From positions 5,400 to 69,399 of the forward strand of contig JANXBS010000004.1 in the NCBI GenBank assembly GCA_025060615.1: a DNA stretch of 64,000 bases, written 5' to 3'. Position numbers and translations under genes: made by a program. This document shows, piece by piece, positions 5,586-49,505 of the stretch; the first letter of the stretch is position 1; every line of letters begins with the position of its first letter. The stretch is from Anaerolineae bacterium. GTDB taxonomy: Bacteria > Chloroflexota > Anaerolineae > DUEN01. A model generated the notes under the pieces. That model saw only the letters and a list, made by a program, of their open reading frames with translations, had not been told where the DNA came from and searched no databases.

Positions 5586-6992
5586 TCATCCCTTGTCAAG
5601 TCCGAACGCGGCATGGATGCGGCGCACAGCTTCATCGCTGTCTCCCTGAGCAACGACCAGCGAGATGTTCGCCTCTGAAGACCCTTGGGCGATGGCGATG
5701 ACGTTGATGCCGGCATCCCCCAGCGCACCGAAGACCTTGGCAGCGATCCCCGGCGTGCCCTTCATGGCCGAGCCTACCACAGCTACGATAACGATGCCGT
5801 CCTCGCCGTGAATGGAGTCAATGAGCCGGCGCTCTAGCTCATAGGCCATCGCCTGACGCAGCGCTTCAAGGACACGTGCAGTATCTGCCTGGGGGATCAC
5901 AAAGCAGATGCTCTGCTCCGAGGAGGACTGCGAGATCATCAAAACGTTGGCGCCGACGCTCGCCACCGCTTGGAAGGTGCGCGCAGCGATGCCAGGGACG
6001 CCGATCATGCCCCGTCCCTCTACCGTCACCAAAGTCAGCCCCTTGATAGCGGTGATCGCCTTGACGACGTGCCCTGTGTTGTCAGCCTTGCGCACGATGC
6101 GGGTGCCCGGGTGGTCGGGATTGAACGTGTTGAGCACGTAAATCGGGATGTCCTGTTCGACAGCTGGCAAGATCGTCTTAGGGTGCAGCACCTTCGCGCC
6201 GAAGTAGGCTAGCTCAGCCGCCTCGGCATAGGAGAGCTGGGGCAACGTACGCGCTGTGGGGACGATGCGCGGGTCGGCGGTGAGTACCCCGTCCACATCC
6301 GTCCAGATCTCCACACGCTCGGCGTCCAAACAAGCTCCGACGATAGCCGCCGAGTAGTCAGAGCCGCCGCGCCCCAACGTGGTGGTGATCCCGTTTTGGG
6401 TCGCTCCGATAAAGCCCGTGACCACCGGCACCACGCCTTGCTCAATGAGGGGCAGAAGCCGCTCACGCGTGCGTTGGCGTGTAGGTTCCATCAGGGGGTT
6501 CGCGCTGCCGAAATGATCATCGGTGACGATGAACTCGCTGGCATCTACAGGTTCGGCTGGGATGCCGCGGGCATTCAACACGGCAGCCAGCAAGGGGGCG
6601 GCCAGGCGTTCGCCCAGGCTAGAGACCACGTCCAGGCCACGCGCCGTCAACTCGCCCAGGACGGCGATGCTGTGGCAGAGCTGCTCGAAGGTTGCCAGCT
6701 TCTCTTCGAACAGCCGTCCTAGCGCGGCGCGAGCCACGCCATCGGGCACGAGCTGGCCGGCCACCATTTGATGCCTAGCCAGCAACTCCGAGCGCACATC
6801 CCGATACACCTGCTCGTTCCCCTCGGCGGCGGCCTTGGCGGCCGCGATCAGGGAATTCGTAACGCCACTCATCGCTGAGGTCACCACCACCGTTTGTGGG
6901 TCCTGAGCGCGCGCCCGTTCGATGATGCTGGCAACGCGGGCGAAGGCATCGGCGTTCCCAACGGACGTCCCACCGAATTTCAAAACTCGCAT
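5586..6992 (-). CDS. lysC: Aspartate kinase (monofunctional, with C-terminal ACT domains)
   Basis: MRVLKFGGTSVGNADAF start, aspartokinase core and duplicated ACT region; GGGGAGG RBS. Confidence 0.9.
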   Translation of the reverse strand: MRVLKFGGTSVGNADAFARVASIIERARAQDPQTVVVTSAMSGVTNSLIAAAKAAAEGNEQVYRDVRSELLARHQMVAGQLVPDGVARAALGRLFEEKLATFEQLCHSIAVLGELTARGLDVVSSLGERLAAPLLAAVLNARGIPAEPVDASEFIVTDDHFGSANPLMEPTRQRTRERLLPLIEQGVVPVVTGFIGATQNGITTTLGRGGSDYSAAIVGACLDAERVEIWTDVDGVLTADPRIVPTARTLPQLSYAEAAELAYFGAKVLHPKTILPAVEQDIPIYVLNTFNPDHPGTRIVRKADNTGHVVKAITAIKGLTLVTVEGRGMIGVPGIAARTFQAVASVGANVLMISQSSSEQSICFVIPQADTARVLEALRQAMAYELERRLIDSIHGEDGIVIVAVVGSAMKGTPGIAAKVFGALGDAGINVIAIAQGSSEANISLVVAQGDSDEAVRRIHAAFGLDKG

Positions 6993-7160
6993 GTATGCCT
7001 CCCCAATGGAATTGCTTATAACCTACAGGCAGCTCTACAGTGAACCGCAGATGACTTTGAACTCCATCCCCATAGCCCCCTTCCCCTAATTTGAGGAAGG
7101 GAGGTCCTTTTTACTAGGGGGGTCTTGCGACGGCTACGCCGTTGCAAAAATCCCTCCACA
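6993..7160 (-). promoter_or_regulatory. Structured 5' leader of lysC: alternative hairpins share the segment CCTCCCTTCC (GGAGGG...CCTCCC versus CCCTTCC...GGAAGGG), plus hairpin TTGCAACGG/CCGTCGCAA. Class unknown; not an obvious L-box.
   Basis: Complementary segments read from the sequence; no conserved lysine-riboswitch motifs recognised. Confidence 0.25.
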
Positions 7161-7166
7161 AGGAAA

Positions 7167-7192
7167 CCCCGTCCCCGCATATGGGGCGGGGC
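7167..7192 (-). terminator. Hairpin CCCCGC...GCGGGG (interrupted) followed by TTTCCTT on the minus strand; weak intrinsic terminator after metW
   Basis: Seen in sequence downstream of the metW stop. Confidence 0.3.
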
Positions 7193-7217
7193 CAGGGATG
7201 AGAGCAAACACTTAGCT

Positions 7218-7838
7218 TTATCTTCCCTGTATGGAACTGTTTTTCTCGATCACCATGATCGCAACAGTGGCTAACAGGTTCTTCCATTTTCGCCAGGGCG
7301 ATACCCGCCCCCAATCGTTGAGGTAGACCTGATGCTTAATGTGAATGCCCTCGGCGCGACAGAAGTCGCCGAAGTCGCGCACGGTGAGCGGGCGCACGCG
7401 CGGCGAAGCATACCACGGCTGCGGTAGCGCCGGCGCGACAGGCATCCGGCCGGTGAGAAGCAAGCTCAGCCGACACCGCCAATGCCCCCAGTTGGGGAAA
7501 CTGACGATCCCCTGCCGGCCAACGCGCAGCATCTCATGCAGGATCAGCGCCGGGGCATCGAGATAGGGCAAAGTCTGGCTGAGGATGACGACATCGAACT
7601 GGCCATCCGGATAATCGGCCAGCCCTTCGTCTAGGTCCCCTTGGACAACGGAAAGGCCGCGGGCCACGCAGGTGCGTACTCCTGCTTCGGACAGCTCAAT
7701 CCCACGGCCATGCACTTGTTTGTGGTCAATCAGATAGCGTAGGAGCGTGCCGTCCCCGCATCCCAGGTCGAGCACGCGGGCTCCTACCGGCACCAGCTCG
7801 GCGATGGCTTGCAGATCGGGGCGCAAAGGCTCAGCCAC
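7218..7838 (-). CDS. metW: Methionine biosynthesis protein MetW (methyltransferase-fold)
   Basis: 206 aa, VLDLGCGDGTLL SAM-fold motif, immediately downstream of metX as in metXW operons. Confidence 0.8.
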   Translation of the reverse strand: MAEPLRPDLQAIAELVPVGARVLDLGCGDGTLLRYLIDHKQVHGRGIELSEAGVRTCVARGLSVVQGDLDEGLADYPDGQFDVVILSQTLPYLDAPALILHEMLRVGRQGIVSFPNWGHWRCRLSLLLTGRMPVAPALPQPWYASPRVRPLTVRDFGDFCRAEGIHIKHQVYLNDWGRVSPWRKWKNLLATVAIMVIEKNSSIQGR

Positions 7839-7859
7839 GATGAGATCACCCCTTGTAGA

Positions 7860-9065
7860 TCAGGAGCGCACAGGCTCCGCACACACTGCGATCCCTTCCT
7901 CTCGGCAGACCCGGGCCAAGAAGTCCCTTACCAGCTCGGTGAGCGTGTCCACCTCCAACAGGAAGGCGTCATGTCCGTAGTCAGAATCCACATCACAGTA
8001 GGTGACGTCCGCGCCGACAGCCTTGAGCGCGCTTACAATCTCACGCGACTGGTACGACGGGTACAGCCAGTCAGAGGTGAACGACACCACCAGGAAGCGC
8101 ACCTTCGCCGCCGGCTGGAAGGCTCTGACCAGGTTGCCGTTGCCATTGGTCAGGTCGAAGTAGTCCATCGCCTTGGTAATGTAAAGATAGCTGTTCGCGT
8201 CGAAGCGTTTGATGAAGTTCTCACCATGGTACTGCAGGTAGCTTTCCACTTCGAACTCGACGGAGAAGTCATAGCCATACTTCTCGCGGTTGCGCAGCCG
8301 TCGCCCGAACTTGCGGTGCATAGACTTATCGCTGAGGTAGGTGATATGGCCGATCATGCGCGCCAAGGCCAGCCCGGCGTTCGGCCGAGGCCCATCATAA
8401 TAATCGCCTTGGTTCCAGTTAGGATCGCGATAAATCGCCTGTCGTCCCACCTCGTTTAGGGCGATGCATTGGGGGGACAGACGAGCCGTGGCAGCCAGCG
8501 AAATACAGGAACGAACGCGCTCGGGATAGCTCACCGCCCACTGGAGGGCCTGCATCCCTCCCATAGAGCCGCCAACCACGGTCAGGAGCTTGTCTATGCC
8601 CAAGTGGTCTATCAAATGCCGCTGCGCGTTCACCATGTCGCCAATGGTGACGACCGGGAAGCTAAGGCCGTATGGTTTGCCCGTCTTGGGGTTGATGCTC
8701 GAAGGTCCTGTGCTGCCCTTACAACCCCCGATCACGTTGGAGCAGATCACCCAGTAGCGGTTTGTGTCGAACATTTTGCCCGGGCCGATGGCGTTATGCC
8801 ACCAACCCGGCTTGCGGTCTTCAGGCGTGTGATAGCCGGCCGCATGCGCGTCACCGGAAAGGGCATGTAGGATCAAAATGGCATTGGAGCGGTCCGCATT
8901 GGGATGACCATAGGTCTCATAAGCCAGGGTGATCGGCCCTAACTTCTCGCCGCTTTCTAAAATCAGCTCGTTGGGCGGCTCAGCGAAGGTGAAGTATTGC
9001 GTCTCGACCAGGCCGATTGTGCCCGGCGCTCCGAAACCGTTGTCAGGCAGTGAATTGCTGCTCAT
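7860..9065 (-). CDS. metX: Homoserine O-acetyltransferase
   Basis: alpha/beta-hydrolase GGSMGG nucleophile motif and MetX-like length and sequence; ATG at 9065 with GGGAG RBS (alternative GTG at 9077). Confidence 0.9.
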
Positions 9066-9077
9066 ACCGACTCCCAC

Positions 9078-9383
9078 TCCCTCTGGTGTGAACGCCTTTC
9101 TCCCCAGTAGTCTCTCATTTTATCGCCTTTTCCTGCCAGAGCGAGATGGCGTGAAGGCGAAACCCTTTTACGGTTCTAGCCCCTCCCCTACCTACGCCCG
9201 GCCTTATTCAGCAGATAGAAAGCCGAGATCGGCCGGGAGGAGGCTGAAAAAGGGTTCCTCTGGAGAAGGCGTTTGCCTCTTCACGCCATCTCCTCCGGGA
9301 CACCTGTCCCCTCTTGAGGACCACCAGTAGGAGAAGCTCAGGGAAAACCTCATGACCTTAGGTTAACGCGAGGGAACGCCGGA
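9078..9383 (-). promoter_or_regulatory. Structured ~300-nt leader between metY and metX. It contains a 21-bp long-range inverted repeat (9143..9163 with 9271..9292) enclosing ~107 nt, and a nested local hairpin GGAGATGGCG/CGCCTTCTCC (9263..9294).
   Basis: Inverted repeat gagatggcgtgaaggcgaaac / gtttgcctcttcacgccatctc read directly; class unassigned. Confidence 0.3.
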
Positions 9384-11055
<1,672 letters not shown>

Positions 11056-11084
11056 CGCTTGCGGAATATTCAATTGTTGGAGTG

Positions 11085-11113
11085 AGTGTAGCATAATCGA
11101 GGAGTGCTGTCAA
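11085..11113 (-). promoter_or_regulatory. Sigma70-like promoter for the riboswitch/metY transcript: -35 TTGACA (11113..11108), 17-nt spacer, -10 TACACT (11090..11085)
   Basis: Hexamers and spacing read from the sequence ~25 nt upstream of the aptamer. Confidence 0.4.
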
Positions 11114-11145
11114 ATCGAACCAGATCAGGAATTGTGTCAGGCGGC

Positions 11146-12257
<1,112 letters not shown>

Positions 12258-12261
<4 letters not shown>

Positions 12262-13643
12262 GAACGCACCGTAACAGCGGAGCGAGCCGGCAGTCCCTTA
12301 CCGTATCGTATAGCTGCGCGCGCAGTCAACCCAAGAAAAGCCGCCATCCCTAACACGCGCCCGATACCGCTCAGTCCGAAGATCAACTTATAGCTTACGG
12401 TGTCGGCCAGATATCCCCCCAGTAGTGGCCCGATCACTGCGCTGACGAAGACAACCGTTTGATACAGGGCCACAGCAACCGGCCGCTGGTCATCCGGCGT
12501 GAGCTCCAACAACAGGTTGAAGTTAGACAGATTGTACCCCGCCCAGAGCAGGCCGCCGAAAGCATTGATCAGAAGCGGCTGCCAAGGGTTTGTCACGAAT
12601 AGCCACGCCAACGGTAGGCCAGGAATCAACAGGCCAGTGATCAACTGAACCCACAAGGCACCCTTTATGTCCAGCAAGCGGCCGAACACGCGTTGCCCTA
12701 CTAGGGAGAAGAAACTGCTGACACCTGCTAACAGGCCTACGATCGAGGTGGTACCATGCAGCTGGTTTACCAAGTACACGTTGAAGAAAGGGGCAGCGAT
12801 TTGAAGTGCCAGGTTCCAGATGAAGGCGCTAATCACAAAGCCAAGGAAACCAGGACTGGTCTGAATGGCTTGGCGTAAGCTTCCCCGCTGTCGCTTTTGG
12901 ATCTCTAAGGTTGGGCGAGAGGGCTCTGAGATTTGCAGAAACGAGAGTGTGCCCAAGATGCCGAAGAGGAAAGCCAAACCGAAGACCACTTGGTATCCTA
13001 GAAAAGGCAGGCCTTGCCAACCGTTAAAGGCCTTGATCAGCTGACCGGCGACTGGAGCTACAACGAGCGCCGCGAGGCCCATGGCCATGTTCCGGCTGCC
13101 AAAATAGCGTCCACGCATCCCACGGGGTACCAGATCTGCAACCAACGCCGTCCAAGCAGGGTTAGCAAAGTTACCCATGAATGCCCGCCAGGCGTTCAGG
13201 GCGATGATGGCCGCAATGGCTAGGGAGGGCTCCGTCACCAGGAAGGGAAGGCAGACAAATCCAAGCAGAGCCAGCCGATTAAACCAACCGCCTGTCCACA
13301 CTACGAGCGCTTTCCACTTCCCCAGCCATTCCGCGGTACGCGCGCCCGGGAAGAGCGCCACAGCCCCTATCAGGCTTCCGATGGCCGTTAAGAGGCCCAC
13401 CTGGCCATTGGTGGCACCATACGCCAAGGCAAAGAGAGTGATAAAGTTAACGTAGAAGTTGTCGCTGATAGCGCTAAAGAGCCCATCCAGCCAAAAGTAA
13501 CGCAGGCAGGACAACCTCTCCGGCGAAAGCGGTCCTTCGGCACAGCGCTCCAGGTGATGATCCAGAGCCCGAATCGCAGCGTGCCAGCTTGATTGGGATA
13601 GATGCGAATGCTCGGCCGGGGTCTCGGGAAAATGCATGTCCAT
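12258..13643 (-). CDS. MFS transporter
   Basis: 461 aa, ~12 predicted TM helices; stop overlaps mutY start by 4 nt. Confidence 0.75.
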
Positions 13644-18987: not shown

Positions 18988-20328
18988 TCAGTAAATCGCT
19001 AAGTACCGATCTAACTCCCATCGGCTGACAGAGACTCGATATTCTTCCCACTCTAATCGTTTCGCCTCTATGTATCGTTCATACACATGGCTGCCTAGGG
19101 CTGCTTGGATGACCTCATCTGCTTCGAGCGCATTCAGCGCTTCGTCTAATGAACGTGGCATCATTTGCAGCCGGCTGCGGGCGCTGCCGATCTCATACAG
19201 GTTTTCCTCCGCCGGGGGAGGTGGCTCCATTTGGTTGCGAATGCCATCCAGGCCAGCCGCCAGCATGACAGCAAAGGCTAGATATGGATTTGCCGATGGA
19301 TCGGGGCATCGCAGCTCGATGCGCGTTGACTCTGGACGGTCAGGATGGACGCGCGGAATGCGGATCAGGGCTGAGCGGTTGATCCTGGCCCAAGAAATGT
19401 AGACCGGCGCCTCGTATCCCGGCACTAAGCGTTTGTAGGAGTTAACCAGCGGCGCGATCACCGCCGACATGCCTCGTGCGTGCGCCAACTGGCCGGCGAT
19501 GAACTGCTTGGCGATGGTGGAAAGCCCATACTCATCGTTGGGGTCAGCAAAGGCGTTCTTTCCAGTGTCTTTGTAGGTGAGGCTCTGATGCGTGTGCATC
19601 CCTGACCCAGCGATGCCGGCGACCGGCTTGGGCATAAACGTGCAGTACAGCCCATTGCGCTGAGCAATAGCTTTCAGGGTCACCCGTAAAGTGACGGCGT
19701 TGTCGGCTGTGGTCACGGCTGGGCCGTACCGGAAGTCGATCTCGTGCTGGCCTACGGCCACCTCATGATGTGCTGCCTCGACGGCGATGCCGAAGCCGTT
19801 CAGCGCCTTCACCATTTGACGGCGCACGTTGTGAGCCAGGTCTGTGGAGACATCAAAGTAACCAGCCAGGTCGTGGGGATTGGTAGTGGGGTTACCATCT
19901 GGGCCAGGGCGAAACAGGAAGAACTCCAGCTCTGGGCCAGTGTGATAGACGAAGCCCATCTCCTCCGCCTCTGCGACCACGCGCTTCAGGACGTAACGCG
20001 GGTCGCCGGCAAACGGCTCGCCCTTGGGAGTGTACACGTCACAGATACAACGGGCGGTGACCAGACCTTCTGACTCCCACGGGATCACAGCGAAAGTGCT
20101 CAAGTCGGGCACCAGGTACATGTCGCTCTCGGCAATGCGCGCAAACCCCTCAATAGACGAGCCGTCAAACCAGATGCCATAGTCTACAGCGATCTTCCAC
20201 TCGCTGACTGGGATCGTCACTTGCTTGACGATGCCCACGATGTCCGTGAACTGGAGATTGATGAACTGGACGCCTGCTCTGGCGATGATCTCTTCGACGC
20301 GTTCGATCTCTGCGCGATCGCGCTTCAT
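18988..20328 (-). CDS. glnA: Glutamine synthetase, type I
   Basis: 446 aa with GS signature regions (FDGSSIEGF, KPVAGIAGSGMHTHQS, NSYKRLVPGYEAP). Confidence 0.9.
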   Translation of the reverse strand: MKRDRAEIERVEEIIARAGVQFINLQFTDIVGIVKQVTIPVSEWKIAVDYGIWFDGSSIEGFARIAESDMYLVPDLSTFAVIPWESEGLVTARCICDVYTPKGEPFAGDPRYVLKRVVAEAEEMGFVYHTGPELEFFLFRPGPDGNPTTNPHDLAGYFDVSTDLAHNVRRQMVKALNGFGIAVEAAHHEVAVGQHEIDFRYGPAVTTADNAVTLRVTLKAIAQRNGLYCTFMPKPVAGIAGSGMHTHQSLTYKDTGKNAFADPNDEYGLSTIAKQFIAGQLAHARGMSAVIAPLVNSYKRLVPGYEAPVYISWARINRSALIRIPRVHPDRPESTRIELRCPDPSANPYLAFAVMLAAGLDGIRNQMEPPPPAEENLYEIGSARSRLQMMPRSLDEALNALEADEVIQAALGSHVYERYIEAKRLEWEEYRVSVSRWELDRYLAIY

Positions 20329-20588
20329 TTCGTCCTTCCCTCCCGATGTCCGTTATAAGCCTTCATTCTGATCTAGGCCCTCTCTCCTGCCTATGCCTGG
20401 CCTCACCAAAGATGGAAAGCCGAAATGGGCAGGGAAAGGGCTTGAAAAGGGTTTTTTCCCTAGAGGGGCGAACACCCCTCCAGACCTCCCCTGTTCTTGC
20501 AGAGGTACCGGCACGGTCGGTAGGTTGAAAAATCTATCCAGGTGAGACATCCCTAGCTCTTCCCAGCAGCAGGAATAGGATCAGTAGC

Positions 20589-22172
20589 CTACAGAAGTTG
20601 TCTTACCTTCAAGGCCAATTGGAGGCGCAGGCGCGTCTCTGAATCCTCTAGGTCAACGCCCAGGATGGACGCGATCCGCTCCAGACGATAGATCAGGGTA
20701 TTACGATGCAGATGCATGATCTCAGCTGTGCGGCTGAGGTTGCCTAACTGGCTGAAATAGACCTCAAGCGTGTACATGAGATCGGTACCCTGTCGACGAT
20801 CGTACTCCTCCAGTACGCCAAGGTTCTCCTGATAAAACGTTTGCAGCACCGGCGAGCGTTCCAGAGGCAACAAGAGCCGATAAACCCCCAATTCGGCTGC
20901 GTCTACGAGCCGGCTGCCCCCGGTAGACGCTAGCCGCCGCCCCAGCGACCAGGCCTGTTCGGCCTCGTCTGCAGCCTCTTTCATTTCGGAGAGCCTCTCT
21001 ACGGGCCGGCTGAGTGCGGCCACCAGCGCGGTTTGAGCGAACTGCCGCTCTAGCGCTTCCAACACCGCACGGGCCAGTCGGCGTCCTGCCTGCGCCGAGG
21101 CCTCACTCGGCACGGGGTAGATGGCGATCACTGGGGCTGGCGCGTGGAGACGCACAGCGACAAAGCCGGCCACCTTCCGCTGCGACAGCTCGTCTTGGAC
21201 GCGTCGAGCCAGATAGCTTGGATCGGGCCCATCGTCACCAGCTACACCTAGCACCAGCACCACCTGAGGTGGCGATGGATCATAGTTAAAAGCTCGCGCT
21301 CGGCGCATCAGGACACTGATATCAAGGTTCTGACCGTTGAGCAACTCTTCGAGAAAGCGGATCCGCTGTTGTACCTCCATGCCGGTGACGGCCCGTTCCT
21401 TGGCCAGCTCCAATGCGCAGACCAACGCCCCTTCCTCTGCGATGATGTGATCGCTGACGTCGAAAGCTCCGGTGAGCCCTATTAGCGAGAGGTAGCCACT
21501 AAGGGTCCCTTCCACCCGGATCGGGAATGCTAGCCGGCTGGCCTCGCCCCCGCCGATCGGCAGAAGACGGGGGCTGTTGAGCCCCTGCACCTCCTCGCCG
21601 TGCAAAGGCCACATGGGGCCGGAGCCAGCCGCCTGACCCAGGATGCGCAACATGGCGTCCTGGATCACTACCGCCTTCTGGCTGGCGCGCGCCAAGGCGC
21701 GCGCCAGGGCATCCCATCCCCGGTTGGCCATCACGACCTCAGCCAACTGATGGGCGACCTGGGCTCGATAACGTCCCAAGGCCGCCTCTCGATCCACGAT
21801 AAGGCGGATAACGGCCCGCTCCACCGAGTTAGCATTCGTCCCTTCCGGCAAAGCAAACAGCGGCATACCGACCTGTACTGCCGTTTCTACCGCCTCCTGG
21901 TTGACTGGGCCGATGACAGCGATTGCAGACACGCTCGCCTCATGCAGGCCGCGAATCACCCGCTCTAGAGAAAGGCCCTCCAGGTATCGTAAGTCCTCGA
22001 CGTTGATCAAGGCCAACTCCTGGCCTTCTAGGCGCGGAAAGGCGGGAGGGCTGGGGCGCATCACACATGTCCAGAGGACGCGACGGCCTAAAGAGGTGTG
22101 TCCCGCCAAAAGCCTCGTCCCCTCTGGCAACGCTAGCCGCCAGACCTCCCCAACAGTTATCTGGCCCGACAT
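20589..22172 (-). CDS. PucR/CdaR-family transcriptional regulator
   Basis: 527 aa; C-terminal PucR-type HTH (LSRTAEIMHLHRNTLIYRLERI); immediately upstream of glnA on the same strand. Confidence 0.7.
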   Translation of the reverse strand: MSGQITVGEVWRLALPEGTRLLAGHTSLGRRVLWTCVMRPSPPAFPRLEGQELALINVEDLRYLEGLSLERVIRGLHEASVSAIAVIGPVNQEAVETAVQVGMPLFALPEGTNANSVERAVIRLIVDREAALGRYRAQVAHQLAEVVMANRGWDALARALARASQKAVVIQDAMLRILGQAAGSGPMWPLHGEEVQGLNSPRLLPIGGGEASRLAFPIRVEGTLSGYLSLIGLTGAFDVSDHIIAEEGALVCALELAKERAVTGMEVQQRIRFLEELLNGQNLDISVLMRRARAFNYDPSPPQVVLVLGVAGDDGPDPSYLARRVQDELSQRKVAGFVAVRLHAPAPVIAIYPVPSEASAQAGRRLARAVLEALERQFAQTALVAALSRPVERLSEMKEAADEAEQAWSLGRRLASTGGSRLVDAAELGVYRLLLPLERSPVLQTFYQENLGVLEEYDRRQGTDLMYTLEVYFSQLGNLSRTAEIMHLHRNTLIYRLERIASILGVDLEDSETRLRLQLALKVRQLL

Positions 22173-45483: not shown

Positions 45484-47532
45484 CTATGGCTGCAGCGCTG
45501 CCGGCAGCGAGAGGGTCACGGCTGGCGGATTGCTCATGGGCGGATCGGCGTCGCGCACGGTGAGCCGCAAGCCGCTAGCGTCACTCGCCACATCGAACAC
45601 GATCACACCGATGGCCGTTTCCCAGGGCGCCAGTTTATGCAGCGCCAACGAGAGCAACCCATGTTGCTCTGCGTAGCGGTTGGTAGCTGCGATGTTCACC
45701 TCATACCGACGGCCTCGGCTGTCCCGCACTCCTTCGCCGAAAGTCAAACTAGCAGCGATCTGTTGATAACCACCGCTTCGGTTCACGATTCGCAATGGCA
45801 CGACTAGAAAGCGACCCTGCTCCGGCCGAAGTGTAGGCGCGCCCTCCAGCAGGTTTACGAGCGTCGGCGTGCTGACGGCGATTTCGAGATCACCGACTAC
45901 CTGAACCGGGCCGAAAGCAAGCTGAGGCGGTGTAGGCGTGGGCGTCGCTAAACGCACTTCTCCGGGCGGGTGCATAGCAATGGCCGAATCAGCGGCGACC
46001 TGTAATTGCGTGATAGACAGCCGCAATGCGCCTAGCTCGCGCGGGAGCTCGCCGGCGGTCAACCATGGCGGCGTATCCACCTGGATGGATCGCTGGCGGT
46101 CGCCTCGACGCGCGGTCAGCCGATAGGTCAGGCATGTGGGACAAGACTTGCCGAATCTATCTTGGGAGAGGTCAAAGAGGCCCTGTCGCTCTAGCTGCCC
46201 CAGCAGCGCCGCCACATCCTCGGGCCGGCCATGCACCACCCATTGCTGGGCGCGACGGCGATCTTCGATGACCACCCTTCCGTCCTGGAAGTAGCTCACC
46301 TGGCGATCCACCTGGAGGCTCTGGCTCTCGTAGGAGAAGACGACGACAGCCTCCACGGGTGATCCGGGTGTTACGATGGGAGTGCTCGTCGGGATGTGAG
46401 ATGTCGCCGTGTGGGTAGCCGTGGGCGGCTTTGCCATCGCAGTGAAGGTAGCGGTCGGCGGCACTAGTGTAAGCATGGGCGTGGGCGGTTTCGGGGTCGC
46501 CGTCGGGGAGACTGTAGGCGTGTGAGTAGGCAGTCGTGTCGCCGTAGGACTGGCTGTTGCAGTGGCTGAGGGTGTTACGGTGGGCGCGACGGTAGCCGTC
46601 AGAGTGGGGGTTGACGTTGCCGTTGGACTGGGAGTCCATGTCTCGGTAACCGACGGGGTAGGGGTGGCCGAAGGAGTCGCCGTGAGCGTTGCGGTCGGTG
46701 CCCCGGTGGGCGTCGCCGTCGGAGAGGGAGAAGGCGTTTTTGTCCCAGTGGGCGAGGGTGTAAGCGTTGGAACGGGCTTCTCCGTCTCAGTAGGGGAGGG
46801 CGTAGCCGTTGGGACAGGTGTCTCTGTCTCAGTGGGCGAGGGAGTCGCTGTAGACGTTGCGGTTGGCGTCTCCGTCTCGGTAGGCGTCGCCGTCGGAGAG
46901 GGAGGGAGTGCCTCGGTCTCGGTGGGCGACGGAGTAGCTGTCGGGACAGGCGTGAGCGTCCCGGTGGCTGAGGAGGTCGCTGTAGGCATTGCGGCTGGCG
47001 TGAATTCCTCAATCGCACTTGCTGCAGCTTCCAGCGTCATCACCGGCGCGGAGAAAGGCGAGACAGTTGCGGTGGGTGTGGCCGTCTGAGGTATCGAGGC
47101 GACCTCACCGAGCCTGATAGGAGGTATTGGTCTCATGGTAGGGGAGGGTAGGAGCGGAGTCGGCGTTGAACTGGGCTCGAAGGTAGCGGTAGGGCTCGCC
47201 GTAGCGGTTGGGCTGGGCTCAAAGGCTGCGGTGGGGCCCTCCGTAGCGCTCGGGGTTGCTGTTGGCTCAACGGTGGCTGCAGCGCTTTCCGTAACGGTAG
47301 GAGACGCCATCGCTACAGGCTGCGCCGTTGGAGATGACGGGGGGGGCGGCGTATCAGGAGGCAGGGTCAGCGTGCTCGTAGGAAGAGGCGGCGTACTTGT
47401 GAAAGTGAGCATGGGAGGCGGAGGAGTCAAACCAACTTGAGAAGCACCTCTCCCCCTGGCGATCAGCCATGCTGCCCCGATGATGAGCACAGAGAGGACA
47501 ATACCGATGATCAGCAAACGTGAGGAACTCAT
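45484..47532 (-). CDS. Signal-anchored surface protein with ~350-aa Thr/Pro/Ser/Ala-rich region and C-terminal globular domain
   Basis: ATG 47532 with GGAGG RBS; MSSSRLLIIGIVLSVLIIGAAWLIA anchor; long PTxT repeat region; immediately upstream of, and co-oriented with, the PMT-like gene. Confidence 0.6.
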   Translation of the reverse strand: MSSSRLLIIGIVLSVLIIGAAWLIARGRGASQVGLTPPPPMLTFTSTPPLPTSTLTLPPDTPPPPSSPTAQPVAMASPTVTESAAATVEPTATPSATEGPTAAFEPSPTATASPTATFEPSSTPTPLLPSPTMRPIPPIRLGEVASIPQTATPTATVSPFSAPVMTLEAAASAIEEFTPAAMPTATSSATGTLTPVPTATPSPTETEALPPSPTATPTETETPTATSTATPSPTETETPVPTATPSPTETEKPVPTLTPSPTGTKTPSPSPTATPTGAPTATLTATPSATPTPSVTETWTPSPTATSTPTLTATVAPTVTPSATATASPTATRLPTHTPTVSPTATPKPPTPMLTLVPPTATFTAMAKPPTATHTATSHIPTSTPIVTPGSPVEAVVVFSYESQSLQVDRQVSYFQDGRVVIEDRRRAQQWVVHGRPEDVAALLGQLERQGLFDLSQDRFGKSCPTCLTYRLTARRGDRQRSIQVDTPPWLTAGELPRELGALRLSITQLQVAADSAIAMHPPGEVRLATPTPTPPQLAFGPVQVVGDLEIAVSTPTLVNLLEGAPTLRPEQGRFLVVPLRIVNRSGGYQQIAASLTFGEGVRDSRGRRYEVNIAATNRYAEQHGLLSLALHKLAPWETAIGVIVFDVASDASGLRLTVRDADPPMSNPPAVTLSLPAALQP
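46777..46951. repeat. Imperfect tandem DNA repeat (period ~42-48 nt) encoding the [ATPSPTETETPVPT]n units
   Basis: Repeating tctccgtctc(a/g)gt(a/g)gg… units read in sequence. Confidence 0.4.
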
Positions 47533-47735
47533 AAATAGACCTCCGAGCCGAGGCCATCTGAAAAGCGGCGCAAGCAGCTGAACGCATTCTACTCCAGGCG
47601 TGAGGAAAAGCAAGCTAGCTAGGTGGAAGAAGAGACCCCCCTCCGCCACCTCAAAGGCCGGGGGTCAGGGGTACGCGCTCATCTGATTTCTGTCCCGCTC
47701 GCATTGTCTTCAAGGCATTTCCAAAGGGGTTCAGC

Positions 47736-49505
47736 CTAGCGAGTGCTGGCCGCTACCAGCCTTTCCACTTCTTGCTCGATCACAGACTCTTCCAGCTTGC
47801 GGAAGAGGGGCTGTGGCTCGCGCAGCGGCTGTCCGGGCGGAAGGCGCTCAGGCCTCCAGGCTGCCGACAGCCCCGAGACATCGTAGCGCAGCGCCAGATG
47901 AGAGCGCTCTGTTTCATGATAGGTTTCCACATACTGCCGACCAAAGAGGGTGCCCTTATGCCCTAGATACTCATGCAGCTTTTGCGAAGAGAAGGGCAGG
48001 AATGGGCTGAAGATTACCCGTAGCCAATCCACCGCTTGCAGGCAGACGTAAATGCTAGTGGCGGCAGCGGTCGGATCGGTCTTGATTTGCTGCCAGGGCT
48101 CCTTCGCATTCAAATAGCGATTGGCTTCTTGGGCTAGGCTCATGGCTTCGGCGAGGGCGGCCTTGAAGTGACACCCCTCGATCTGCCGGCCGACAGACTC
48201 GAAGCCGGCCTCGATGCGGGCCAGCAGGGCGCGGTCGGCCTCATCCAGCTCCCCTGGCTCGGGCACGCGGCCGTCAAAGCGACGGTAGGCGAAGCTGAGC
48301 ACCCGATTCGCCAGGTTGCCCCATGTCGCCACCAACTCGGTGTTGTTGCGACGGACGAATTCCTCCCAAGTGAAGTTGACATCTGCCGTCTCCGGCGCGT
48401 TGATGGTCAGGATATAACGCCATGGGTCGGGGTCGTACCGTTGCAGGACATCCAGCACCTCGATCACCCAACGGCGTGATTTAGAGAGCTTCGCTCCCTC
48501 AACGTTCAGGTACTCGTTGGCCGGCACGTCGTAAGGCAGGTTCAACCCGCCGTACGCGTAGAGCATCCCTGGCCAGATGATGGTGTGAAATGGAATGTTG
48601 TCCTTGCCAATAAAGTAGTAACTCTTTACATCGGGCGCGATAGCCGAATCCCACCACTCTCGCCACGCCTCTGGTTGACCGGTGATCTTGGCCCACTCTT
48701 TGGTGGCTGAGAGGTAGCCAATCACCGCATCGTACCAGACGTAGATGCGCTTACGCTCATAGCCGGGCAGCGGGATGGTGACACCCCATTGGATGTCACG
48801 GGTAATGGGCCGGCCGCGTAGTTCGCCTGACTCCAGTTGTGCCCGCGTGAAATTGAGGACGTTGGGGCGCCAGTGTTCCTTGTCTTGGCGGATCCACTCT
48901 AGGAGGGGAGGATTCAGTTTCCCCAAATCCAGGAAGAAGTGCTCCGTCTCTCGGATGACGATCTCAGCGCTTCCACACACCTTACAGCGCGGGGTGATCA
49001 GCTCAATGGCATCCAATGTGCGACCGCAATTGTCACACTGATCGCCGCGGGCGCTGGTGGAACCACAATACGGGCACGTCCCCTCGACGTAGCGATCGGC
49101 GAGGAACCCCTGATGGCGGTTGCAGTAGGGGGCTTGTTGGATGTCCTTGTAGATATAGCCACGCTCCAGGTGGCGCAGAAACATGTCCTGGGTGACCGCC
49201 CAGTGGTTCTCCGTATCTGTCTCAGTGAACAGGTCGAAGGTGATGCCCAGCTTCTGGAACATCTCTAAGAAGCGCGGATGATAGCGATCTACCACCTCGC
49301 GCGGCGTGATGCCTTCCTCTTCAGCGCGTACGGTGATCGGGGTCCCATGCGTGTCAGAACCCGACACCATCAGCACCCGGTTCCCTTTCAGACGATGATA
49401 GCGGGCGAAGATGTCTGGTGGCAGGTAGGCGCCGGCGATGTGGCCGATATGCAAATCGCCGTTGCAGTAAGGCCAGGCGACGCAGACCAGGATTTTCTCA
49501 GGCAT
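47736..49505 (-). CDS. metG: Methionine--tRNA ligase
   Basis: HIGH motif ([12 protein letters not shown]), zinc knuckle CPYCG…CDNCG, KLSKS. Confidence 0.9.

Follow-up and report, generated by a model that had tools for sequence, protein, structure and literature searches.

A palindromic interspersed repeat of the MITE/REPIN kind very probably forms the long hairpin between metY and metX in an uncultured Chloroflexi bacterium

The methionine operon and the inverted repeat in its spacer

The stretch of DNA that we analysed (64 kb of an Anaerolineae contig, hereafter the window) carries a methionine operon on its minus strand. The upstream gene of the operon is metY (10688..9384), which encodes O-acetylhomoserine sulfhydrylase, a PLP enzyme (PF01053, E 2.4e-141). 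It is followed by metX (9065..7860), encoding homoserine O-acetyltransferase and preceded by the ribosome-binding site GGGAGUGGGAG at about 9082-9072, and by metW (7838..7218), which was assigned from its translation and from the PF07021 MetW domain recorded for the identical gene on locus L001. An aspartokinase gene (6992..5586) comes after metW on the same strand. The nearest homologues bear names of uncultured Chloroflexi (Anaerolineae, Caldilineae or Ardenticatenia MAGs), which assigns the window to this group. Upstream of metY, and also on the minus strand, a promoter scan located a sigma-70-like site (11113..11085) ahead of a SAM-I riboswitch aptamer (11055..10895; RF00162, 81 bits, E 1.5e-18), and a terminator scan located a terminator-like hairpin after the aptamer (10879..10856). 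The whole metY-metX-metW operon is controlled by this SAM-I riboswitch. One stem of the aptamer has an insertion of about 64 nt, as seen from the skipped positions of the Rfam model. Two terminator-like hairpins with U-tracts follow the aptamer in succession on the minus strand (10879-10856 and 10820-10800), and the second of them gave a weak match to the anti-hemB sRNA (23 bits, below threshold). The promoter, the aptamer and both hairpins of the metY leader (window 10800-11113) are kept at 20519-20850 of L023, the locus of the closest relative.

The genes metY and metX are separated by an intercistronic spacer of 318 nt (9383..9066, minus strand), where the promoter and terminator scans found no promoter-like site and no credible terminator. 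This spacer holds a spaced inverted repeat, of which the arms at 9143-9156 (GAGATGGCGTGAAG) and 9279-9292 (CTTCACGCCATCTC) are complementary at 14 of 14 positions and enclose 122 nt. In the RNA sense (minus strand), the 5' arm (9279..9292) reads GAGAUGGCGUGAAG and the 3' arm (9143..9156) reads CUUCACGCCAUCUC. Beyond these 14 bp, the extension of the arms is imperfect (AGGCAAAC versus GCGAAAC); the inverted repeat of the original prediction is therefore real, but its description as 21-bp near-perfect arms was generous. When gaps are allowed, about 29 of the 32 terminal positions pair. No other spaced perfect inverted repeat of at least 14 nt within 400 nt occurs in the whole window, and a spaced 14-nt perfect inverted repeat arose in only 7 of 40,000 shuffles of the spacer (about 2 per 10,000). 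The position of the repeat also differs from that first described: the 5' arm begins 92 nt past the metY stop and not immediately after it, and the 3' arm ends about 60 nt ahead of the metX ribosome-binding site, somewhat closer than the predicted 70 nt or so.

Inside the arms, a nested 9-bp helix (AACCCTTTT/AAAAGGGTT, at 9248-9256 and 9161-9169) and a further inner hairpin complete one long structure. The central long hairpin (9161..9256, minus strand) has the closing helix AACCCUUUU/AAAAGGGUU and the conserved blocks UCGGCUUUCnAUCU and AGGCCnGGCnUAGGnAGG. For the minus-strand RNA of 9300..9135, a fold of -90.7 kcal/mol was predicted, compared with -61.6 +/- 4.0 kcal/mol for shuffled sequences (z = -7.4). 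A local hairpin competing for the 5' arm had been predicted as well, and it is present: GGAGAUGGCGU/ACGCCUUCUCC pairs 9293-9283 with 9272-9262, has one U-U mismatch, and is mutually exclusive with the long-range helix. Enforcing this local hairpin gave -78.5 instead of -90.7 kcal/mol, a penalty of about 12 kcal/mol, and the probability of the long-range pairing at equilibrium was 0.998 in the predicted fold.

The two junctions of the element are identical in a Logan assembly made independently from run SRR15826899, which argues against the element being an assembly artefact. The same assembly breaks within the element (L014 ends at about window position 9214 and L001 starts at 9153, with about 60 nt unassembled), and such a break fits repeated or strongly structured sequence.

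Copies in the window and in relatives

The original prediction had also considered a MITE-like insertion with terminal inverted repeats, for which a BLAST search for further copies was suggested. Within the window, blastn and blastn-short searches with the spacer found no second copy, whereas nhmmer with the element of the metY-metX spacer as the query (copy 1, about 175 nt; 9128..9305, minus strand) alone detected a second, diverged copy (20482..20357, E 2.6e-10, about 74% identical). The genes on either side of this copy 2 (20340..20504, minus strand) are, by Pfam, one for a PucR-type regulator (22172..20589) and glnA (20328..18988), both on the minus strand. The copy consists of the 5' stem-loop and the central hairpin without the 3' inverted-repeat arm; its end is about 29 nt ahead of the glnA start codon. 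The profile of the family matched copy 1 at 9305..9130 (E 9.6e-37). A profile built only from the six copies of relatives recognised copy 1 (9300..9159, E 5.6e-9) and copy 2 (E 2.7e-9) and nothing else at E < 1 in the 64-kb window. Because this profile retrieves exactly the two window copies, the family membership is not circular. No further match to the terminal modules, and no lone terminal module, was found in the window besides the two diverged copies, and the genome of the window seems poor in the family. The element is non-coding, as only an ORF of 49 aa and an antisense read-through ORF run across copy 1; its translation found no relatives among 1.84 billion representative proteins.

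Short BLAST matches to the spacer at 46.7-47.1 kb of the window were rejected, being in a repetitive coding region and not in a copy of the element. An ORF of 721 aa (45484-47649, minus strand) carries a DUF4352 domain at its C terminus, contains tandem 42-nt and 18-nt units at 46732-46894 and 47173-47214, and adjoins the gene for methionyl-tRNA synthetase (47736-49505).

The closest relative is represented by L023, a locus that ends inside metY on a 255-kb JGI contig (JGI 3300066320, Ga0599197_00160). Its GlnA is 96% identical and its DNA 77-86% identical to those of the window, and the gene order from pucR to metY is the same. The profile found at least five copies within 21 kb of L023, three on the plus strand (9769-9979, 11483-11667 and 11739-11949) and two on the minus strand (12130-11994 and 20424-20241). 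The copies are inside duplicated composite blocks: a direct duplication over 309 nt is 95.8% identical, and an inverted one over 331 nt is 97% identical. Since the orthologous coding DNA of the window and L023 is only about 80% identical, these duplications at 96-97% identity are recent. The two window copies, at about 74% identity, are by contrast old. The composite blocks (9678-10027, 11399-11976 and 20138-20508), of about 310-330 nt, consist of several modules, among them a perfect hairpin (CCCTGCCCTGTGAAAT...ATTTCACAGGGCAGG) that lies within the element; in the JGI annotation the repeats are overlain by ORFs of 145 and 124 aa. A second relative, L024 (GlnA 87% identical), has one full copy at 5463-5300 in a divergent promoter region and an isolated terminal stem-loop module (11345-11382; GGCGTGGGGGAATCCCCTCCACACCTCCCCCTGTGGAG) immediately behind the glnA stop, which resembles a REP singleton at the 3' end of a gene.

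The wider spread of the family was visible through the spurious 145-aa ORF over the L023 repeats. It matched 45 distinct domain-less 'hypothetical proteins' (53-99% identical) in a collection of 5.8 billion proteins, and these are spread over many large contigs, with at least 10 of them listing the same longest contig of 999 kb. From these matches, a genome of that lineage would hold dozens of copies. The 45 repeat-derived proteins gave no tblastn matches in the window, because the window copies are too diverged.

Scans of other collections did not add members. A genome-contig collection, evidently without the window's own genome, was scanned with the two arms and gave five matches, none of them true members. 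Three were inside long ORFs and are due to chance, and the other two belong to a 160-nt palindromic repeat in the Omnitrophota MAG JADGBR01, the interior of which is not significantly similar to the window element (z from -0.6 to 2.1) and which was negative with the family profile. This Omnitrophota repeat is intergenic at both places (L009 753-912 and L013 3539-3698, in opposite orientation) and has 20-bp terminal inverted repeats (GATGGCGTGAAGGAGATGGG) that have 12 nt in common with the window arms; it looks like an unrelated family met by chance. A scan of metagenome contigs with the conserved core pattern gave four matches, which were to the pattern alone and in the number predicted by chance. 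The GC-rich module at 9725-9816 of L023 is 77-81% similar over about 80 nt to several intergenic sites on Azospirillum brasilense megaplasmids. This weak resemblance was seen in 21 records at up to 4 places each (for example NZ_CP032348.1 614631-614710, unannotated), and may be due to convergent GC-rich palindromes or to a distantly related repeat. The family itself had no match in Rfam or in the literature searched, and the window copy was unmatched in the plasmid collection; a palindromic repeat family of this kind in uncultured Chloroflexi is apparently undescribed.

The sites occupied by the element vary between relatives. We compared the window with its nine nearest metX relatives. In these (loci L002-L008 and L015-L018, with MetX 85-89% identical), the metY-metX-metW order is kept throughout. 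Their metY-metX spacers are 50-78 nt long, against 318 nt in the window, and neither the element nor its structure is present in any of them. Conversely, two sites that are empty in the window are filled in L023: the region downstream of glnA (124 nt in the window; 955 nt with three copies in L023), and the region from mutY to the riboswitch promoter (51 nt in the window; 484 nt with one copy in L023). The pucR-glnA spacer holds a copy in the window and a composite insert in L023, and no copy in L024. Thus, the family has multiple copies in both orientations that are present or absent between relatives, and the suggestion of a MITE-like insertion with terminal inverted repeats is upheld by the second window copy, by the L023 copies in both orientations and by the variation of the occupied sites. 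The relatives with a 410-aa MetX have a different hairpin in their spacers (L005 2924-3000, L016 744-821, L017 2424-2500 and L018 2424-2500). It is conserved, GC-rich and about 48 nt long (GGGCGAGGCC...GGCCUCGCCC), and is followed by UUUCU; its apex varies and seems to have undergone compensatory changes. This hairpin is unrelated to the repeat element and may be an intercistronic partial terminator or stabiliser.

We also examined the insertion sites. No convincing target-site duplication was found around the metX-spacer copy; the 7-nt direct repeat CTACTGG (9330-9324 and 9110-9104) is about 30 nt outside the arms and at chance level. The similarities between the window spacer and those of the relatives are marginal and insufficient to define the insertion boundaries. 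In L023, a 24-nt duplication of the region around the glnA ribosome-binding site and start (GGGAAGGAGGATCGAATTGAYATG) flanks the 309-nt composite insert; such a duplication is atypical and raises the possibility of an unusual insertion mechanism. Neither the window nor the loci showed a transposase or RAYT gene with matching ends, and there is no transposase among the Pfam-annotated genes of L023 and L024.

Architecture of the family and comparison with known repeats

We aligned eight copies (the metX-spacer and glnA-spacer copies of the window, five from L023 and one from L024) using MAFFT, which is not structure-aware, and the alignment gave only a partial consensus structure. A GC-rich 5' terminal stem-loop module is found in all eight copies (for example GUGCGGAGGG-UCCC-CCCUCCGCAC and GUGUGGAGGGG-AGCU-CCCCUCCACAC), and the differences between subfamilies in this module are compensatory. 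In the metX-spacer copy, the module (9262..9293, minus strand) is the very hairpin that had been described as competing for the 5' arm. In the full-length members, the terminal inverted repeats are imperfect and about 30 nt long; they are best preserved in the metX-spacer copy with its perfect 14 bp. These terminal inverted repeats were seen in the metX-spacer copy and in L023_a and L023_b, and are absent in the one-ended copies (the glnA-spacer copy, L023_c and L023_d), which have the 5' module and the central hairpin only. The layout of a 5' stem-loop module with an inverted 3' module, as in REPINs, was recognised in the metX-spacer copy, L023_a, L023_b and L024_a. In the central hairpin, all 31 pairs are retained in both window copies.

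The arms of the metX-spacer copy correspond to the termini of the family. The 3' arm aligns with the family 3' terminus CCTCCACGCCA[C/T]CCC of L023_a and L023_b, after which GGCAGGAA is shared; together with what follows it (CGCCTTCACGCCATCTCGCTCTGGCAGGAA), it was aligned to the L023_a/b 3' end TCCCTCCACGCCA[C/T]CCCTTTCAGGCAGGAA. The 5' arm is the counterpart of the reverse-complemented L023_b 3' end (GGGATGGCGTGGAGGG). The terminal modules have the form GG[A/T]GG-loop-CC[T/A]CC (GATGGCGTGRAGG), and the flanks of the aligned termini in the eight copies are (C)AGGGGAGGT...stem...AGAAAACCC. By inspection, GTAG, CTAC, CGTC or GACG was found beside the terminal stems in none of the eight aligned copies, and the element is thus not a classical tagged REP (PMC3733652). 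The two folds of the metX-spacer copy are mutually exclusive since either terminal repeat, being a palindrome, forms a stem-loop module of its own, and not because of a switch; termini that fold on themselves or on each other are a structural property of REPIN-like elements.

Several known systems share part of these features. REPINs, or REP doublets, of Pseudomonas and Enterobacteria, which are mobilised by RAYT tyrosine transposases, are likewise non-coding, intergenic and multi-copy (PMC3116915, PMC3337134), and the similarity extends to the occurrence of lone modules, such as that at 11345-11382 of L024, and to the lack of an evident target-site duplication. However, the present family is longer (150-200 nt versus about 100 nt), has a large structured spacer with nested extra hairpins, has no GTAG/CGTC tag by the terminal stem-loops and is hosted by an uncultured Chloroflexi lineage, and no RAYT gene was identified in the window or the loci. 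GTAG-tagged REPs are known from the same phylum (GTAG-23 of Thermomicrobium roseum) and are also palindromic intergenic repeats, but they are units of 20-40 bp with the tag, whereas the family here is several times longer and tagless (PMC3733652). In the GTAG REP families, G-T pairing in the stems has been taken as a hint of a function at the RNA level (PMC3733652). The bacterial MITEs ERIC/IRU (127 bp, Enterobacteria) and Correia/CREE (Neisseria) resemble the present family in their size of 100-200 bp and their terminal inverted repeats (PMC10969869, PMC2649163, PMC3184786), in forming co-transcribed long RNA hairpins, in inserting between operon genes or in untranslated regions, and in being present or absent between genomes. 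RNase III cleaves Correia transcripts where the inverted repeats pair, and mRNA decay is altered by ERIC insertions (PMC10969869). The differences are that there is no sequence similarity, that no target-site duplication was found here although Correia duplicates TA, that no internal promoter or IHF site is evident, and that there is no known parent insertion sequence. The family is shorter than about 500 bp, non-coding and bounded by terminal inverted repeats, and has dispersed copies that are present or absent between relatives, as is characteristic of MITEs. SAM riboswitch classes (RF00162 and others) have the methionine-operon context and alternative pairings in common with the metX-spacer copy, but the element has no covariance-model match, is unconserved in orthologous leaders and occurs also at non-methionine sites.

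Alternative readings and consequences for the operon

On this evidence, we consider it very probable that the hairpin, a copy of about 175 nt, belongs to a family of MITE/REPIN-like repeats which are non-coding, palindromic and interspersed in an uncultured Chloroflexi lineage. The original prediction named as another possibility a second riboswitch or attenuator, which would be specific to metX-metW and would sense SAM or another ligand through competition between the local and the long-range helix. The two mutually exclusive structures and the setting in a methionine operon speak for such a switch, but we regard it as highly improbable. A cmscan of window positions 6500-12500 (E <= 10) with 4227 Rfam families, including all SAM classes and T-box, assigned no family to the spacer except microRNA models (18-19 bits, E 5.8-9.2). 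MicroRNA models favour long hairpins generally. The sole SAM or T-box match in the scanned region was the SAM-I at 10895-11055 upstream of metY, and the entire operon is already behind this riboswitch. An expression platform, either a terminator or a sequestered ribosome-binding site tied to the alternative folds, was not found in the spacer: no U-tract follows the 3' arm, the single terminator-like match is a weak 5-bp stem inside the element, and the metX ribosome-binding site is outside the structure and left free. The lack of the structure in orthologous metX leaders, named beforehand as a ground for abandoning the riboswitch, was observed in 9 of 9 relatives. Moreover, the element is found upstream of glnA and at intergenic sites unrelated to methionine, in both orientations, and the long-range helix is strongly preferred in the predicted fold. 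The element is not a ligand sensor. A local origin of the inverted repeat, by inverted duplication or template switching of the spacer and unique to this locus, is even less credible. Its support is that the 77-nt spacer of L005 shares GAGATGGCGT with the arm (p of about 0.02-0.04 before correction for 14 tests) and that the spacer has somewhat more short direct repeats than expected (9 versus 3.8); these spacer similarities are marginal under multiple testing, and, against a unique origin, the 5' module and the 3' arm align with family termini at unrelated L023 sites and the profile from relatives alone recognises the metX-spacer copy.

The remaining alternative is that the family is less a selfish mobile DNA than an RNA structure that acts in cis and is maintained by selection in transcripts such as metYXW and glnA, where it would stabilise the mRNA, mark a site of processing or serve as a regulatory hairpin after co-option. 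At the metX locus, such a structure would set the metY:metXW ratio. Several observations point in this direction and, equally, count against a purely mobile repeat. Both window copies are sense-oriented and just upstream of biosynthetic genes, and all 38 pairs of the two-copy window consensus are kept despite about 26% divergence (11 one-sided G-U changes, 4 two-sided changes and none broken), which fits selection on the RNA structure. The two-copy consensus folds at -37.2 kcal/mol in the sense strand versus -20.8 kcal/mol in the opposite strand, and each window copy folds better in sense than in antisense (-87.0 versus -74.4 and -62.4 versus -56.4 kcal/mol). The compensatory differences in the 5' stem-loop between subfamilies agree with this. 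However, the 38-pair structure was derived from the same two sequences in which the covariation is counted, and the shuffle control matched the observed value in 30 of 500 cases. The strand asymmetry is not consistent across the family either, since in the L023 copies the antisense strand folds equally well or better, and these copies are in both orientations while the genes there are uniformly on the plus strand. The occupied sites differ between relatives, near-identical recent duplicates exist, and the metX copy is missing from nine relatives with the same operon. We therefore judge a primarily functional RNA to be unlikely. Against the preferred reading as a mobile repeat also stand the failure to find a convincing target-site duplication, or a transposase in the window and the loci, the presence of only two copies in the 64 kb of the window, and the collection scans and translated search, which added no members.

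As a repeat of the MITE/REPIN kind, the family, being non-autonomous, would depend or have depended for its spread on a transposase acting in trans, and one copy would have inserted into the metY-metX spacer within this lineage. The element, in or after which there is no promoter-like or credible terminator-like site, is probably co-transcribed with metY, metX and metW from the promoter of the SAM-I riboswitch. The transcript would then carry, between two cistrons, a hairpin of about -90 kcal/mol that leaves the metX ribosome-binding site, about 60 nt further downstream, unpaired by it, and most likely the operon is affected modestly or not at all. If REP, ERIC and Correia elements are a guide, the hairpin could stop 3' exonucleases or undergo cleavage by RNase III (PMC10969869, PMC2649163), and either process might shift the metY:metXW ratio; a neutral passenger is equally plausible.

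A related but minor possibility, which we hold to be doubtful, is that the two old sense copies have been co-opted in the metXW and glnA transcripts to govern the processing or stability of the RNA, or to switch kinetically between the terminal stem-loop and the long-range helix, or else that the element inserted by an unusual mechanism. If co-option were true, amino-acid biosynthesis genes would be tuned downstream of, and independently from, the SAM-I riboswitch. With the mobile-repeat reading, the locus is a natural test case for the expression of an operon with a hairpin of about -90 kcal/mol between two of its cistrons. The family also has practical consequences for sequence data: at least 45 'hypothetical proteins' in public data are spurious calls caused by it, and it may break assemblies. 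The value of the finding is mainly corrective, in that a statistically real long-range hairpin in a methionine operon is easily mistaken for a new riboswitch.
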